Below are positions 19,314-42,517 of a stretch of 64,000 nucleotides of DNA, one piece after another. Source of the DNA: Thermoanaerobaculia bacterium (GTDB lineage Bacteria; Acidobacteriota; Thermoanaerobaculia; Multivoradales; Multivoraceae); NCBI GenBank assembly GCA_965116955.1, contig OZ220742.1, positions 71,577 through 135,576 on the forward strand, read 5' to 3'. The notes under the pieces are model-generated. The model saw only the letters and a program-made list of their open reading frames with translations, made no database searches and was not told the origin of the DNA. The position numbers and the translations under genes were made by a program. Positions within the stretch are counted from its first letter, which is position 1, and the number at the start of each line of letters is the position of its first letter.

Positions 19314-19907
19314 GTGAAGTTCAACGGGCCCAAGGTCAAGCTCTCCCGCAAGCTGGGCATACCACTGACGCCCAAGGCCTCGCGGTACATGGAAAAGAAG
19401 GGCCATCCCCCGGGCATGCATGGCCTCAAGCGGCGCCGCCGCCAGAGCAACTACGGGCGGCAGTTGCTCGAGAAGCAGCGGCTGCGTTACCAGTACAACG
19501 TCAGTGAGCGCCAGCTCCGCAACTACTACAAGCGGGCGACGCGGATGAAGGGCGTGACCGGCGACAATCTGGTCGGTCTGCTCGAGACCCGACTCGACTC
19601 GGTCGTCCATCGGGCCTTCGCGCCCAGCGTGTTTGCCGCGCGTCAGTTCGTCGGCCACGGCCACATCCTGGTCAACGGCCGGCGCGTCAACATTCCGTCC
19701 TACGGAGTGAAGGAAGGCGACGTCGTCGAGGTGCGGGAGAAGAGCCGGAAACTCCGCTGCTTCAACGAGCCGCGCGGCGTGACGGTCCCCACCTACGTGG
19801 AGACGGATGAAACCGGCTATCAGGCGACCCTGCGCAGCACACCGGTTCGGGACGAAGTCCCGATCGTCTGCGAAGTGCCGCTGGTCATCGAGTTCTACTC
19901 CCGCTGA
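19314..19907 (+). CDS. rpsD: 30S ribosomal protein S4
   Basis: GTG start preceded by GGAGA. Highly conserved uS4 sequence (MKFNGPKVKLSRKLGIPLTPKASRYMEKK...S4 domain). Has a ~210-nt 5' leader. Confidence 0.95.
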   Translation: MKFNGPKVKLSRKLGIPLTPKASRYMEKKGHPPGMHGLKRRRRQSNYGRQLLEKQRLRYQYNVSERQLRNYYKRATRMKGVTGDNLVGLLETRLDSVVHRAFAPSVFAARQFVGHGHILVNGRRVNIPSYGVKEGDVVEVREKSRKLRCFNEPRGVTVPTYVETDETGYQATLRSTPVRDEVPIVCEVPLVIEFYSR

Positions 19908-22360: not shown

Positions 22361-23569
22361 CTACTCGTCCACTTCGTAGTAGTCGACGAAGCCGATCATC
22401 ATCTCGTCCGTCGTCTCGCGTCCCCAGGAGACGTCCCGGGCCGGATCGGGGTTCAGCGGATTGTCACTGCTGTTGTCGTAAGTCGCCGTGCAGCGAAGCC
22501 GCGTGCCGGCGGGAAGCAGCCTGGGCTCGGCGAACCGGTAGGTCGTCTGCCAGTTGAAGTCGTAGCCGGTGACCAGGAGCAGCATCTCGGAACGTCCGTC
22601 CGGATACTCCGCCCGGAACTCGAACGTGTCGCCGCGCAGGTGCATGTGCGGCCTGAGCGACAGCAGGCGGGTGGCGCGCGGAAAAGTCAGCTCGGCCTCG
22701 AACCGGACGTCCCGCTCGCCCGCCGGAATCCACAGGAAGGGCGTCGAGCAGAGCCCGGTGAGGGACTCGTGGCGAGGCGGCTCTGCCGCCAGGATCAGGC
22801 CGATCCGGCTCCGGTCCGTCTCCTCCTTTCCAGTCGGCGTGTAGTGCATCTGGAAGTCGAGCACGGCGCCCGCGGGAAGCCGGCGGCCGACCCCGGGCGG
22901 CATGACGAGGGGGCCGGTTCCCGGCGCGTAACCACCGAGATCCCCCGCCGTGCGCGGATCGCCGCCGGGGCTTTCGCGGACCGCGCCGGCGCCCGGGAAC
23001 GCCTGCACGATGATGTGATGAACAACGGCCGGGTTGCCGGGCCGCGTCTCCGCCGCCTGGATCCACACGTCCTCGGCCAGACCCGTTTCCACCCGGTAAC
23101 CGTGGTACGGAACGTCACCGGTCGCCGGCACCGTCACCACTTCCGGCAGCTCGAAGACGAGGTCGGGAACGCCGATGCTCCAGTCGACTCTCCCGGCAGA
23201 TGCGGACCGTTCCGCCGCCATCGCCTCCCGCGACGCAGACCCAGGCTGGCTGCCGCCGTCGATCCACGCCAGCAGCTTCGCCTTCTCGGACGCCGTCAGA
23301 CGCCGGTCGTTCACGAAGTCGCCGTAGCGCGGGTCGGCGTGCCATGGAGGCATCGCTCCCGAGGCCACCGCCCGGCGGATCGAGGACGACCAGGCGCGCG
23401 CCTGCTCGAAGGTCCGCAGCGCGAACGGCGCAGGACCGCCCTCCGTGTGACAACCGGAGCAGCGGCTCCGCAACACCTCCGCTACCGCGTCGAAGTCGAC
23501 CGCGGCCGCCGGCTGGACCAGCGCCGTCAGGCCGAACCAGAGCGCGGCCGCCGCCGGCCCGGCGTTCAG
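22361..23569 (-). CDS. Cytochrome c (CxxCH) fused to copper type II ascorbate-dependent monooxygenase (DBH/PHM)-like domain; start codon uncertain
   Basis: Hydrophobic signal-like segment (PAAAALWFGLTALVQPAAA). Heme-binding CSGCH. Downstream CuH-like HHIIV...FQMHY and CuM-like HMHLRG...M motifs. No in-frame ATG/GTG/TTG between the upstream in-frame stop and the signal-like segment. The only candidate is CTG at 23569-23567, overlapping the PQQ-gene stop (CTGA). The remainder of ORF 22361..24730 overlaps the real PQQ-repeat gene in another frame. Confidence 0.5.
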   Translation of the reverse strand: MNAGPAAAALWFGLTALVQPAAAVDFDAVAEVLRSRCSGCHTEGGPAPFALRTFEQARAWSSSIRRAVASGAMPPWHADPRYGDFVNDRRLTASEKAKLLAWIDGGSQPGSASREAMAAERSASAGRVDWSIGVPDLVFELPEVVTVPATGDVPYHGYRVETGLAEDVWIQAAETRPGNPAVVHHIIVQAFPGAGAVRESPGGDPRTAGDLGGYAPGTGPLVMPPGVGRRLPAGAVLDFQMHYTPTGKEETDRSRIGLILAAEPPRHESLTGLCSTPFLWIPAGERDVRFEAELTFPRATRLLSLRPHMHLRGDTFEFRAEYPDGRSEMLLLVTGYDFNWQTTYRFAEPRLLPAGTRLRCTATYDNSSDNPLNPDPARDVSWGRETTDEMMIGFVDYYEVDE

Positions 23570-24960
23570 GGTCCGCTCGCGCCGCCCGCCTGATTCGTGA
23601 TCCGGTACAGCTTGCTCCGGGTGCGGATGTAGAGGCTGCCGTCGGCGATCGCCGGCGTCGACATGGCCATCTCGTCGAGCGAGTTCTTGCCGACGACCTT
23701 GAACTCGTCGCCGGCCTCGATCACGAACGTGTCGCCGTCCTCGCTGAGCACGAAGACCTTGCCGTTGTAGGCCCAGGGCGACGCCGTGAAGGCGCCCGAC
23801 CCGCGTTCGATCCGCTGCTTGCCGTAGACCTCGGCGCCCGTCTTCGGATCGTGCGCGGTGAAGAAGCCCCGGTCGAGCAGGGTGTAGAAGCGGTCGCGGT
23901 AGATCAGCGGCGTCGGGTTGTAGGCGCCGGCCTGAGGCTGGTACCAGACCACCCAGCGGTTGCTCTGCTGATCCTTCTCCAGCGTGATGTCGCCTTCGGC
24001 GCCCGGCTTGATCGCGTAGACCGGGCGGACCTGGTCGCCGATGTAGCCCGACGACACGTACAGCAGGCCGTACTTCGAGAACGGCTGCGGAATCGCGATG
24101 GACGACATGCCGCCGAAGTGCCACAGGAGGTTTCCCTGCTCGTCGTACGAACGCACCTGGTCGGTACCCGGCGTGATCACCTCCGTGCGAAGTTCGTTCT
24201 CCCACACGAAGGGGGTCGCCCAGTTGCTCCCCTCTTCGCGGGCGTCGCGCCACAGCTCCTCGCCGGTCGCTGCGTCGAGGGCCATCAGGAAGGACTGGTC
24301 CTCGTTGTCGTTCACGACGTAGAGCTGCCCGTTGTGTACGACCGGCGACGCCGCCGTCCCCCAACCGAAGCGCGTCCGGACCACCTCGAAGCGCTGCTCC
24401 CAGACCGGCTCGCCGTCCAGCGTGAAGGCGAAGACGCCGACGTTGCCGAAGTACGCGTAGATCCGCTCGCCGTCCGTGACGGGAGTCTCCGAGGCGTAGG
24501 TGTTCTTCAGGTGGCGCGGGAAGTCCGGCGCCCCGACCAGCACCTCGCGCTCCCAGCACTTCTCGCCGGTCTCCACCTCGAAGCAGACGACCGACCAGTG
24601 GTGCTCGTCGGCGGACGGCTGCATCCGGTTTCCGCCGAGGTAGAGGCCCTTCTTCGGCTCCTCGACCTCTCCCTCGCTCCACACCGTGGTCAGGTACACG
24701 CGGTCGCCCTGCACGATGGGCGAAGACCAACCCAGGCCCGCCACATCGACGACCCAGGCCACGTTCTCCGTCGTGCTCCAGGTCTCCGGCAGGCGCGGGT
24801 CGTCGTCGGCGACGCTCATGGCGTCCGGGCCGCGGAAGGCCGGCCAGTTCTCAGTGGCCGGCGGAGCGGCGAGGACGGCGACGGCGAAAAGGAGGGCGGC
24901 CGTGGCCGCGGTGAACACGAGTCTAGGTGTGCGCATCCGGAATCTCCAGGTGGAGGTCAT
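23566..24960 (-). CDS. PQQ-like beta-propeller repeat protein (BamB/YfgL-like), secreted
   Basis: Start at 24960 forms an ATGA overlap with the ogt stop. An alternative ATG at 24936 has GGAG 7 nt upstream. Signal peptide (MRTPRLVFTAATAALLFAVAVLAAP). Repeated W/G propeller blades (e.g. NVAWVVDVAGLGWSSPIV, GQLYVVNDNEDQSFLMALDAATGEELW). Confidence 0.75.
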   Translation of the reverse strand: MTSTWRFRMRTPRLVFTAATAALLFAVAVLAAPPATENWPAFRGPDAMSVADDDPRLPETWSTTENVAWVVDVAGLGWSSPIVQGDRVYLTTVWSEGEVEEPKKGLYLGGNRMQPSADEHHWSVVCFEVETGEKCWEREVLVGAPDFPRHLKNTYASETPVTDGERIYAYFGNVGVFAFTLDGEPVWEQRFEVVRTRFGWGTAASPVVHNGQLYVVNDNEDQSFLMALDAATGEELWRDAREEGSNWATPFVWENELRTEVITPGTDQVRSYDEQGNLLWHFGGMSSIAIPQPFSKYGLLYVSSGYIGDQVRPVYAIKPGAEGDITLEKDQQSNRWVVWYQPQAGAYNPTPLIYRDRFYTLLDRGFFTAHDPKTGAEVYGKQRIERGSGAFTASPWAYNGKVFVLSEDGDTFVIEAGDEFKVVGKNSLDEMAMSTPAIADGSLYIRTRSKLYRITNQAGGASGP

Positions 24961-25514
24961 TCTGGCTGGGAAACTGCCTGCGAAGTCGCGCGCGAGCTTA
25001 GCACCGGCGAGAGCCGCAGCTGCCTTCCGGCCACGCGCTGTTCCAGGTCCAGCAACGCCTGCTTCGTCGGCAGACCGCCGCCGAAGCCGGTCAGCCGGCC
25101 GTCGCTGCCGATCACTCGATGGCAGGGCACGACGACCGGCAGCGGGTTGCGGCCGTTGGCGGCGCCCACGGCCCTCGAGGCCGTCGGCTTGCCGATTCGC
25201 GCCGCCAGCTCGCCATAGGAGATCGTCTCGCCGAACGGGATGCGCCGCAGTTCGGTCCATACGCGGCGCTGGAACGCGGTGCCGTGGGGAGAAAGCGGCA
25301 GGTCGAAGTCCTGCCGCTCACCGGCGAAGTACTCCTCGAGCTGCCGTTTCGCTTCCGCCAGCGCCGCCGGAAGCACCTCACTCGAAGGCTTCCAGGTCGG
25401 ACTAGGTGGTTCCACCGCCCGATTCGGCAAGTCGATGCAGTCGATGGAGTCCTCTCCACCCACCAGGCGGAGGGTGCCGATTGGCGTGTCGAAGGCGTGG
25501 TAGATCGCAGTCAT
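24957..25514 (-). CDS. ogt: Methylated-DNA--protein-cysteine methyltransferase
   Basis: 185-aa protein with the active-site PCHRV motif and MGMT DNA-binding domain (RVWTELRRIPFGETISYGELA). Confidence 0.9.
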   Translation of the reverse strand: MTAIYHAFDTPIGTLRLVGGEDSIDCIDLPNRAVEPPSPTWKPSSEVLPAALAEAKRQLEEYFAGERQDFDLPLSPHGTAFQRRVWTELRRIPFGETISYGELAARIGKPTASRAVGAANGRNPLPVVVPCHRVIGSDGRLTGFGGGLPTKQALLDLEQRVAGRQLRLSPVLSSRATSQAVSQPE

Positions 25515-41317: not shown

Positions 41318-42517
41318 ATGACGGAACGCCCGCTGCGATGGCTGTTCTTCTACGACTGCATCTACCCGGAGTCGCTCGGCGGCGTCGAGCACCGGAATCA
41401 CGAGCTGGCGCGGGAGCTCGGCCGGCTCGGCCATGAGGTCGTGCTCTCGGGTTGGGCGGATGGTCCCGGCGCACCGCACCCGAACGTCCGCGTCGAACCG
41501 GTCGCCCGGGCGAGCCGCCGCTACCTCGCCCGCGGCCGCAGGTCGGGTATCGAAGCGCTGACGCTCGCCTCCCAGGTGCGCCGCATTCCGCTCGACGGCA
41601 TCGATATCGTCGAGACCGCGAACATCCCCTACCTGCACCTGCCCCTGCTTGCCCGGCGCTGCCGGAAGCGGCGCATCCCACTGCTCGTCACCTGGCACGA
41701 GCACTGGGGACGCTACTGGCGAAAACACCGGCCTCCAGGGCCCTTCAGCCCCGGCATGTGGCGCTTCTACGCCCTCTGCGAACACTGGTCGGCGCGTTTC
41801 GGCACGCAGGCGGTCGCGGTCAGTCGGCTCACCGCGGACCGTGTCTCCAGGGTCCGCGGCCAGACGGTCGACGTCGTCCCCAACGGCATTCCGTTCGAAC
41901 GAATCCGCGCCCTCGCGGCGGAAGCGGACGCGAACGCTCCGCCCCTGGTCTACGCCGGCCGGTTGATTCCAGAGAAACGGATCGACCTGCTGCTCGACGC
42001 CACGGCTCGACTGGCGGCAACGGAGACGGGCCGCAGGCTCGTCGCCGAGCGCGGAGCCCTGCTCCGGATCATCGGCGGCGGCCCGGCGGAGGACGACATC
42101 CGCGCGCACATCGAGCGCGAGAACCTCTCTGGAATCGTCGACTTCGCCGGCCGGCTGCCCGAAAACGAGGACGTATGGCGCGCCGTAGCCGGCGCCCGCC
42201 TGGCGGTACAACCCTCCGCCCGCGAGGGCTTCGGGCTCTTCCCGCTGGAAGCGATGGCCGCCGGCGTGCCGGTAGTGCACTGCAGGTCCCCGAACAGCGC
42301 CGTGTCCGAACTCGTGCGCGACGGCAGGGAGGGATGGGCCTCCCCCGCCGACGTGGGCGAACTGGCCCGACTGCTCGAACGGCTGCTCGGCGCACCCACG
42401 GATACCACCGCCGCCGCGCGCGCTGCACTGGAGCGCGCTGCCGGCTACGACTGGCGACAGGTCGCTGACCGGGTCATCGAAACCGGAACCGAACTCGTGC
42501 GGCGCGAGCGCGCCTGA
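41318..42517 (+). CDS. Glycosyltransferase family 4
   Basis: Internal ATG at 41318 (upstream ORF portion is antisense to mltA). GT-B, with C-terminal EGFGLFPLEAMAAGVPVV motif typical of GT4. Confidence 0.75.
   Translation: MTERPLRWLFFYDCIYPESLGGVEHRNHELARELGRLGHEVVLSGWADGPGAPHPNVRVEPVARASRRYLARGRRSGIEALTLASQVRRIPLDGIDIVETANIPYLHLPLLARRCRKRRIPLLVTWHEHWGRYWRKHRPPGPFSPGMWRFYALCEHWSARFGTQAVAVSRLTADRVSRVRGQTVDVVPNGIPFERIRALAAEADANAPPLVYAGRLIPEKRIDLLLDATARLAATETGRRLVAERGALLRIIGGGPAEDDIRAHIERENLSGIVDFAGRLPENEDVWRAVAGARLAVQPSAREGFGLFPLEAMAAGVPVVHCRSPNSAVSELVRDGREGWASPADVGELARLLERLLGAPTDTTAAARAALERAAGYDWRQVADRVIETGTELVRRERA

Follow-up and report, generated by a model that had tools for sequence, protein, structure and literature searches.

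The proposed initiation codon of a cytochrome c/PHM-like gene in a Thermoanaerobaculia bacterium is a CUG that overlaps the stop codon of the preceding gene. The gene lies on the minus strand of a 64,000-nucleotide stretch of contig OZ220742.1 (hereafter the window) and, at its full proposed length, comprises 402 codons and a TAG (22361..23569), its product combining a cytochrome c domain with a PHM/DBH-like two-copper domain. Judging from sequence comparison, we assign a probability of roughly three in four to the reading that it is a functional, independently translated cistron initiated at CUG 23569-23567, within a CUGA stop-start overlap with an upstream beta-propeller gene. The T and G of this CTG (23567..23569, minus strand) are the first two bases of the propeller TGA (23566..23568, minus strand), which confirms the position of the CTG and its overlap with the TGA as given in an earlier note on this DNA. 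The same note had let the feature run to 23640; because the coding sequence ends at 23569, that position falls inside the upstream gene. The frame terminating at TAG 22363-22361 encodes ...LNAGPAAAALWFGLTALVQPAAA|VDFDAVAEVLRSRCSGCH..., together with the motifs HHIIV, FQMHY, HMHLRG and DEMM.

The gene is part of a tightly packed run of ogt, propeller and cytochrome c/PHM-like genes, the synteny of which is kept in all related loci that extend far enough upstream. The first gene, ogt (24957..25514, minus strand), encodes an O6-methylguanine-DNA methyltransferase (Pfam PF01035, 2.8e-35; PF02870, 1.2e-9). The propeller gene (PQQ_2/BamB-like; 23566..24960, minus strand) has its own signal peptide and starts either at ATG 24960, in an ATGA overlap with ogt, or at ATG 24936; its relatives are called at 455-458 aa. 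Overlaps of the ATGA and GTGA types are common in the window, the ogt-propeller junction (ATGA) included. Elsewhere in the window, in-frame CTGA junctions at 2827, 19905 and 42515, as well as two sites that read TGATG (15604 and 60132), were considered and set aside: all have canonical starts close by and thus provide no evidence of general CTG use.

No other start was found for this frame. From GTG 24124 to GTG 23476 and TTG 23473, it contains no in-frame ATG, GTG or TTG, and because ATT, ATC and ATA are likewise absent in frame between GTG 24124 and GTG 23476, CTG is the only near-cognate codon in the interval. GTG 24124 is the nearest canonical in-frame start upstream of the CTG, at a distance of 185 codons and inside the propeller gene; every upstream in-frame GTG or TTG of the window lies at least that far away, within the same gene. 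A start at GTG 24124 or another of these far-upstream codons was rejected, as such codons are not conserved (going upstream, five clade members reach an in-frame stop without passing one) and their use would also mean reading at least 185 codons out of frame through the propeller gene. On the downstream side, GTG 23476 and TTG 23473 follow the hydrophobic segment and stand just 4-5 codons before the heme Cys. It had been claimed that the frame lacks a canonical start between an upstream in-frame stop and the hydrophobic segment. The absence of a start holds back to GTG 24124, but the window offers no nearby in-frame stop: no stop interrupts the 427 codons that precede the CTG in this frame, and GTG and TTG codons occur among them. 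In its strict form, the claim is true of the sister genomes L001, L012, L014, L015 and L016, and also of L020.

The arrangement is conserved across species and deeper lineages. The clade comparison covered 11 distinct sequences, namely the window and 10 further loci, 9 of them from GTDB species representatives labelled Ca. Multivorans, Thermoanaerobaculia, Holophagales or Acidobacteria; two of these nine duplicate loci obtained earlier. The CCCTGAAC junction is identical and indel-free in all 11 sequences, which come from independent assemblies, and the CCCTGAACGC junction is without indels in the same set. The missing start codon itself could point to an indel introduced in assembly or sequencing, with an ordinary start concealed in a different frame, and high-GC, homopolymer-poor sequence can still carry errors. 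Yet short- and long-read assemblies from many different samples have the same junction without indels, and the other two frames hold no start leading into a compatible reading frame; this explanation, raised in the earlier note, is refuted by the independent assemblies, and we give it practically no weight.

Across related sequences, the CTGA junction is present in 22 of the 22 examined, and in 21 of these the CTG shares the reading frame of the mature protein, equivalent to 9 of 10 lineages (as the lineages are related, these are not fully independent trials). The distances from CTG to the heme Cys are 36, 36, 38, 39, 39, 39, 48, 50 and 78 codons, all in frame and free of stops; indels between the two points were therefore multiples of three. 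The only out-of-frame lineage, L008, has a 79-nt spacer and its own ATG. In a control set of 77 distant family members evaluated, a canonical start precedes the heme Cys by 28 codons or more in all 77. The C of the CTG is also kept in 22/22 sequences, where any change would be synonymous for the last Pro codon of the propeller and a change from C to G would give both the preferred Pro codon CCG and a canonical GTG start. Selection on this base was considered but is not significant, about 17% of comparable four-fold sites being invariant, and its conservation is not attributable to start function because L008 and L009, which have starts of their own, keep the C as well.

Substitution patterns within the clade bear on whether the segment between CTG and GTG is translated. 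Over its 31 codons, pN/pS is 0.26-0.30, compared with 0.21 for the rest of the gene and with 1.76 and 2.70 when the same segment is read in the other two frames; for codons 2-23 and 2-8, the values are 0.30 and 0.24, respectively. Variable columns fall at codon position 3 in 18 of 34 cases (binomial p=0.014), and the changes in codons 3-6 are mainly at third positions. Together, these patterns show a CTG-to-GTG segment, and with it the signal-peptide region, evolving as translated sequence in the target frame under frame-specific purifying selection.

The same values weigh against the idea that a deletion removed the start and left the window clade with a decaying or silent pseudogene. L008 and L009 possess a spacer, an ATG or GTG of their own and an Arg-rich n-region that is missing from the window clade, and this difference suggests a 5' deletion or rearrangement; in L003, moreover, the stop codon has been lost and the reading frame runs on for 40 codons. 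However, all 10 clade sequences that cover the end of the frame have it intact (L017 is stop-free as far as it extends), every heme and copper ligand is retained, and the start-less arrangement persists in much more divergent lineages. With pN/pS at 0.21 in the mature part and 0.26-0.30 in the signal peptide, pseudogenization, another of the alternatives first entertained, is contradicted by the data and very unlikely.

Codons 1-23 (23501..23569, minus strand) encode a predicted signal peptide, (M)NAGPAAAALWFGLTALVQPAAA, assigned heuristically, with an AxA site before VDFD. Its h-region in the window clade is AAAALWFGLTALV, followed by A-A-A before VDFD, and the peptide has homologous counterparts in P0011 and P0013, relatives whose starts are canonical. 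The n-region of the window clade (MNAGP) contains no K or R and hence no positive charge; R-rich n-regions occur in L019, L020, L021, L022 and L103. When read from the CTG, L019 encodes (M)SGALRTAAVGSFLAALALPSVA|VDFDD, L020 encodes (M)TGGRRTARIAAVGWVLAVGALPAAA|VDFD (its CTG stands 13 codons after an in-frame stop), L021 encodes (M)SRRAASRQFGSLPTVGFAVVAATTVAVRA|... and L103 encodes (M)IGGRGAASAAAAVWVLAAFALPAGA|DDFDD. The signal peptides of these divergent lineages are non-homologous and differ in length, yet the CTG of CTGA stands in frame directly before each of them. The first canonical codon comes after the signal peptide in L019 and leaves just 11-13 residues of it in L020 and L103. With an identical junction in 11 sequences, purifying selection and an in-frame CTG in divergent lineages, the earlier proposal that this codon is the only plausible initiator is supported.

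These observations also bear on the database annotation, according to which translation would start at GTG 23476 (Val32; 23474..23476, minus strand) and yield a 371-aa protein without a signal peptide that is cytoplasmic, heme-less or non-functional, or exported otherwise. This codon is the first canonical one in frame and the choice of automatic gene callers in sister genomes: P0001, P0003, P0005 and P0006 are 371-aa products starting at the Val32 position, and the first canonical in-frame codon was likewise chosen in P0008 and P0025. A GGAGG immediately precedes the GTG in the window. The GGAG adjoins the GTG at zero spacing, however, and the GGAGG is not conserved, being replaced by GCCGACGTG in L003, GCGCCGGTG in L012 and GCGGGAGTG in L017. 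Furthermore, the 31 codons upstream of it are under frame-specific purifying selection and encode a homologous signal peptide, and homologues with long N-termini conserve the Val at an internal position. A start at this position would drop the signal peptide and cut both the conserved VDFD.VAE segment and helix 26-36 of the structural model, within which the Val lies. Attachment of c-type heme requires export, and export of the cytochrome c domain holds only if the CTG start is used. We therefore regard the annotated start as improbable.

The frame-specific selection and the preserved frame past the junction are explained equally well by initiation at CTG and by a frameshift fusion starting in the propeller ORF. 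In such a case, a programmed -1 (or +2) frameshift near the end of the propeller ORF would create a propeller/cytochrome c/PHM-like fusion in which the apparent signal peptide is an internal linker or cleavage site. The target frame is indeed -1 relative to the propeller frame and open through the junction, and the propeller's own signal peptide could bring the fusion to the periplasm. Nonetheless, there is no X XXY YYZ heptamer at the junction, and no slippery site is conserved because the last codons vary (GGA, GGG or GGC CCC TGA; AGC TTC TGA in L021). The junction RNA folds no better than shuffled sequence (MFE -66.7 kcal/mol versus a shuffle mean of -66.3; z = -0.10). The segment directly after the CTG resembles an N-terminal signal peptide in its n-h-c layout, with AxA before the conserved VDFD, in every lineage; canonical starts of their own are available to L008, to L009 and to each of the 77 distant members evaluated; and the in-frame stop of L020, 13 codons upstream of the CTG, and that of L006, 26 codons upstream, leave very little room for a shift. 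Recoding, which the earlier note had offered alongside an indel, thus finds neither a slippery site nor a stimulatory RNA structure here, and we consider it quite improbable.

Initiation at CUG is the best explanation of these data. A ribosome terminating at the propeller UGA would re-initiate on the overlapping CUG, in a -4 nt 'NTGA' coupling, and initiator tRNA would give (f)Met-Asn-Ala-Gly-Pro..., the beginning of a Sec-type signal peptide with its cleavage site behind AAA. This would leave VDFD as the N-terminus of the mature periplasmic protein, which would carry one c-type heme and a PHM/DBH-like two-copper monooxygenase core. From the comparative data, we infer that ribosomes initiate on the CUG itself, that they can do so only upon terminating the upstream ORF, and that the protein undergoes export and maturation. 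In none of the 11 clade sequences do the 22 nt before the CTG contain a Shine-Dalgarno (SD) core (GGAG, GAGG or AGGA), which fits re-initiation that does not rely on SD recruitment.

Among prokaryotic gene couplings, the NTGA geometry is the most frequent (PMC12548453). Like known -4 nt termination-reinitiation overlaps of this type, the window pair is co-directional and shares two bases between TGA and NTG (J Bacteriol 2025, PMC12548453; Huber et al., 2019, PMC6728339). Whereas nearly all annotated cases use ATG, GTG or TTG, N is C here, giving the near-cognate CUG in a presumably coupled pair, and for this reason standard gene callers do not call the start. CUG is among the codons that initiator tRNA can decode (bioRxiv 10.1101/520783) and belongs, with AUU and AUC, to the near-cognate bacterial starts; one first-position base separates it from AUG, which places it in the same class as GUG and UUG (genetic code table 11; Meydan et al., 2019, bioRxiv 10.1101/520783). 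In mycobacteria, CUG is rarely used as a start and served as a 'non-start' mutation (PMC11260477). Its poor performance as an initiator in well-studied bacteria speaks against a CUG start, as does the lack of positive charge in the n-region of the window clade. Documented CUG starts are isolated and rare, whereas the CUG of the window is kept in at least 9 species-level genomes as well as in several deeper lineages and in each case forms part of a CUGA overlap. More tentatively, and with considerable doubt, the CUG might be a selected device and not a tolerated defect: in this uncultured Acidobacteriota clade, synthesis of the monooxygenase would then be restricted to ribosomes coming directly from the end of the propeller ORF, and the weakness of the codon would hold the two periplasmic partners at a low, strictly coupled stoichiometry.

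The start codon has consequences for annotation. Many database entries of the ortholog group begin at the first canonical codon; P0001, P0003-P0006, P0008 and P0025 have no signal peptide as a result, and only 11-13 signal-peptide residues remain in P0016, P0017, P0019 and P0020. Predictions of localisation and function for these proteins will consequently be wrong. Common gene callers are not known to consider CTG as a start, and the cause of mis-annotation is therefore a general one. The junction, a natural CUGA overlap that evolution has conserved and that lacks an SD core in the preceding 22 nt, also provides a clean test of how far termination-reinitiation relaxes start-codon selection.

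The heme and PHM/DBH-like copper assignments made in the earlier note are borne out by fold and ligand alignment. In an alignment of 30 sequences with identities down to 46%, C37, C40 and H41 of the heme c attachment motif CSGCH (23447..23461; this and the following sites are on the minus strand) are invariant along with M73, giving the CxxCH and distal Met of a class I c-type cytochrome. Pfam Cytochrome_CBB3 matches weakly (23.3 bits versus a cut-off of 27), and a single-sequence search of the PDB returned only weak monoheme cytochrome c matches (E ~0.03). The putative copper ligands are invariant as well. H184-H185 (HHIIV, 23015..23020), assigned to the CuH site, align to VHHM of PHM in a profile alignment, and H242 (FQMHY, 22844..22846), the third CuH-site histidine, to LQVHY. 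The CuM-site histidines H308-x-H310 (PHMHLRG, 22640..22648) align to RVHTHHLG, and M390 (DEMM, 22400..22402), a candidate CuM methionine ligand, is presumably equivalent to Met314 of PHM.

An AlphaFold2 (AF2) model of the protein (pLDDT 84, pTM 0.79) was compared with the PDB using Foldseek, and the top 31 matches were all PHM or DBH, with E down to 8.6e-14. The two-domain PHM catalytic-core fold is thus present in the predicted structure. The protein does not attain the Pfam gathering score for Cu2_monooxygen or Cu2_monoox_C: PF03712 scored 18.3 bits, below its cut-off of 23, and PF01082 was not reported in the Pfam search of the protein. An NCBIfam search gave no family. We found no solved structure for the family, and literature searches returned nothing relevant on it and nothing on Candidatus Multivorans. 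PHM and DBH are copper type II ascorbate-dependent monooxygenases (PDB 1phm, 3mll, 4zel) that have a two-domain beta-sandwich fold in common with the window protein (Foldseek E 8.6e-14 to 1e-12, approximately 280-310 aligned columns); their HH...H and HxH ligands align with those of the window protein, in which the Met is also conserved. Unlike PHM, to which it is approximately 16% identical, the window protein is bacterial. It further differs from PHM and DBH in its fusion to an N-terminal c-type cytochrome domain, which presumably replaces ascorbate as the electron donor, and in that many of its relatives carry an added AhpC/TSA-redoxin domain.

The fusion of a heme domain with a two-copper monooxygenase had been described as unusual, a view at odds with the 3,722 proteins recovered at E<=0.001 among 8,000 candidates and with the at least 575 loci confirmed in a metagenome scan. 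The metagenome loci, used only as a control, are mostly 40-52% relatives without a propeller neighbour (3/80 loci). The cytochrome c plus PHM-like architecture is widespread in Acidobacteriota, Planctomycetota and other metagenomic lineages, and the family is uncharacterised. This PHM-like family is very large and belongs to no Pfam or NCBIfam entry; it may be the more rewarding target. In the window and its relatives, the gene run points to a conserved, tightly packed and probably secreted pair, composed of a PQQ-like beta-propeller and a putative heme-plus-two-copper PHM-like monooxygenase.

The cytochrome c/PHM-like gene (minus strand, 22361–23569) ends at a TAG at 22363–22361, and its frame translates as ...ERT-L-NAGPAAAALWFGLTALVQPAAA-VDFDAVAEVLRSRCSGCH..., followed by HHIIV, FQMHY, PHMHLRG and DEMM. 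The gene upstream encodes a PQQ_2/BamB-like β-propeller (Pfam PF13360, 1.6e-24), and its TGA stop at 23568–23566 (minus strand) is overlapped by an in-frame CTG at 23569–23567, giving CTGA. An inventory of all in-frame ATG, GTG, TTG, CTG and ATH codons left as N-terminal candidates this CTG, two CTGs in the hydrophobic core, GTG 23476 and TTG 23473; the last two lie past the signal-like peptide, 4–5 codons ahead of the heme Cys. The earlier note had reported no canonical start between an upstream in-frame stop and the hydrophobic segment. No such stop lies nearby in the window, as the frame is open over 427 codons above CTG 23569; a canonical start is indeed missing near the N-terminus before the signal-like peptide, but in-frame GTG/TTG codons exist further up, the nearest 185 codons from the CTG within the propeller gene, whose frame differs. 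We consider that the gene initiates at CUG, with a probability of roughly three in four.

In each of the closest database proteins (P0001, P0003, P0005 and P0006; 371 aa, 89–92% identity), the first residue corresponds to GTG 23476; thus, the start-codon problem recurs in other genomes. Loci from the contigs of these proteins, and from species-representative genomes scanned with a propeller C-terminus pattern, formed a window clade of 11 distinct sequences including the window; nine clade loci are GTDB species representatives, two of which duplicate loci already in the set. The records are labelled Candidatus Multivorans (Acidobacteriota, class Thermoanaerobaculia), Thermoanaerobaculia, Holophagales or Acidobacteria bacterium. 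The CCCTGAACGC junction and the 89-nt distance to GTG are common to all 11, without a single indel, which makes an assembly error concealing an ordinary start at the CTG/TGA junction practically untenable and disposes of the sequencing indel previously offered as an alternative. A far-upstream canonical start is likewise ruled out for the clade, because in five members (L001, L012, L014, L015 and L016) the stretch from the upstream in-frame stop to the CTG contains no such codon.

Substitution patterns indicate that the 31-codon segment from CTG to GTG is translated in the target frame. Within it, 18 of 34 variable alignment columns fall at the target-frame third position (binomial p = 0.014), and pN/pS (Nei–Gojobori, summed across all sequence pairs) is 0.30 for codons 2–23, 0.24 for codons 2–8 and 0.26 for codons 2–31, as against 1.76 and 2.70 when the segment is read in the other two frames; the remainder of the gene gives 0.21. 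The clade consensus peptide is LNAGP[AG][AS][AVT]ALW[FL]GL[TA]A[LI][VAT][QL]P[AS][AVST]A|VDFD. These measures, with an ORF intact in the 10 clade members reaching its end, contradict the suggestion of a pseudogene, which is scarcely credible. In L003, the normal stop codon is lost and the ORF runs 40 codons further. In L003/L010 (P0008), EVED is followed by 40 extra Arg/Ser/Pro-rich residues and, so lengthened, the ORF reaches into the convergent GFO/IDH/MocA gene.

The key result comes from the junctions of deeper orthologues (73–81% identity to the target protein), in which the order ogt, propeller gene, target gene and convergent GFO/IDH/MocA oxidoreductase is kept. L019 reads CTGA, then (M)SGALRTAAVGSFLAALALPSVA|VDFDD, with its first canonical start only past the signal peptide; L020 reads CTGA, then (M)TGGRRTARIAAVGWVLAVGALPAAA|VDFD, with an in-frame stop 13 codons above the CTG and a called GTG that leaves just an 11-residue "signal peptide"; and L103 reads CTGA, then (M)IGGRGAASAAAAVWVLAAFALPAGA|DDFDD, where the called GTG leaves 13 residues. 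L021 has TTCTGA, then (M)SRRAASRQFGSLPTVGFAVVAATTVAVRA|..., the alternative start being a TTG at codon 13. An in-frame CTGA also occurs in L022, L023 and L029 (GTG at codon 7), L006 (ATG at codon 7) and L104 (downstream GTG codons available). In L009, a 102-nt spacer with a GAGG SD-like motif leads to a GTG start, the CTG still being in frame; in L008, a 79-nt spacer leads to the gene's own ATG, and the CTG is out of frame. From CTG to heme Cys there are 36 codons in the window clade, 36 in L019 (an unrelated peptide), and 38, 39, 39, 39, 48, 50 and 78 elsewhere, all in frame and stop-free; therefore, repeated indels preserved the frame starting at the CTG, directly after which comes a predicted signal peptide of typical n-h-c layout. 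In L104 (4303–5720), the GFO/IDH/MocA gene gives way to a Thoeris-like pair of defence genes (ThsB_TIR, ThsA_Macro) together with part of a DDE transposase.

Initiation at GTG 23476 is very improbable: a c-type cytochrome needs an export signal, which this start would delete, and it would cut the conserved VDFD.VAE segment, part of model helix 26–36; moreover, the GGAG adjoining this GTG at zero spacing is not conserved. A −1 frameshift out of the propeller ORF, the recoding raised in the earlier note, would account equally for translation of the segment, but is highly improbable. The junction contains no slippery heptamer, the propeller's last codons vary, and RNA structure is at the shuffled level (z = −0.10). 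In every lineage, the peptide has the predicted anatomy of an N-terminal signal peptide. L008 and L009 have a canonical start of their own available, as do all 77 distant family members evaluated among the metagenome matches listed, which served as a control and carry it 28 or more codons ahead of the heme Cys.

The CTG proposed earlier as initiator is thus supported by the conserved junction, selection on the segment and the agreement of deeper lineages. The best-supported mechanism would be stop–start coupling to the propeller gene, which we infer to proceed by re-initiation. The NTGA arrangement with a −4 nt overlap is the commonest coupling geometry in prokaryotes (PMC12548453), and CUG, although deemed a rare and weak start codon (PMC11260477), is among the near-cognate codons usable by initiator tRNA (10.1101/520783). 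The target gene matches this geometry, its N being C; both mechanism class and codon class are already known. Several ATGA and GTGA junctions occur in the window, and none of the 11 clade sequences has a GGAG, GAGG or AGGA in the 22 nt preceding the CTG. The conserved, probable CUG start within the CUGA overlap is a real feature, one that gene callers systematically mis-annotate. Its C doubles as the third position of the final Pro codon in the propeller ORF, where any change is synonymous and creates ATG, GTG or TTG; it is kept in 22 of 22 sequences, although Pro codons in the window favor CCG over CCC (169 vs 87). Selection for a weak start codon is no more than possible, because ~17% of comparable four-fold sites are likewise invariant and L008 and L009 also keep the C. 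Three further plus-strand CTGA junctions (2826–2829, 19904–19907 and 42514–42517), at which the CTG likewise shares the frame of the ORF that follows, are uninformative, each having a canonical start 11–47 nt downstream.

The PHM-like assignment of the earlier note proved correct, because the fold matches and the ligands align. With the AlphaFold2 model (pLDDT 84, pTM 0.79; low confidence in the inter-domain linker, residues 117–126), Foldseek ranks 1–31 were all PHM or DBH (E 8.6e-14 to 1e-12, ~280–310 columns), and a PDB-sequence profile search aligned HHII to PHM VHHM, QMHY to QVHY and PHMH to VHTH, the CuH and CuM histidines of PHM. C37, C40, H41, M73, H184, H185, H242, H308, H310 and M390 are invariant across a 30-homologue alignment reaching down to 46% identity. 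The architecture, formerly thought unusual for bacteria, is widespread and merely uncharacterised: 3,722 of 8,000 candidates scored E ≤ 0.001 in a protein search, and a metagenome scan confirmed at least 575 loci. A literature search on the family found nothing relevant, every Pfam match fell below the gathering score, NCBIfam holds no family for the protein, and no solved structure was found for this family of invariant heme and copper ligands. Members of this very large family (P0056, P0061, P0064–P0071 and others; loci L024–L102) turn up in Acidobacteriota and Planctomycetota as well as in metagenomes from soil, freshwater and marine sites; many carry an additional N-terminal AhpC/TSA-redoxin domain and are annotated just "peroxiredoxin" or "hypothetical". 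P0007, P0009, P0013, P0024 and P0026 bear big lineage-specific, Ala/Ser/Pro/Gly-rich low-complexity insertions (up to ~80 residues) in the cytochrome c/PHM-like linker and the loop past the HH motif.

The ogt stop and the propeller's first ATG overlap as ATGA (24957–24960, minus strand); together with the CTGA, this makes a chain of overlapping cistrons, an odd operon with a DNA-repair methyltransferase ahead of two secreted redox proteins. The 564-aa call for the propeller gene (ATG 25260) over-extends into ogt, relatives being called at 455–458 aa. In NCBIfam, its product (23566–24960) has a weak match to TIGR04528, "acido-empty-quinoprotein group A" (E 0.001), and further matches to propeller models for BamB and PQQ-dehydrogenases; all score far under the cut-off, and the protein may be a PQQ-less propeller. 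The propeller–monooxygenase pairing is confined to this Thermoanaerobaculia clade, a propeller gene lying nearby in 3 of 80 loci among the metagenome matches listed.
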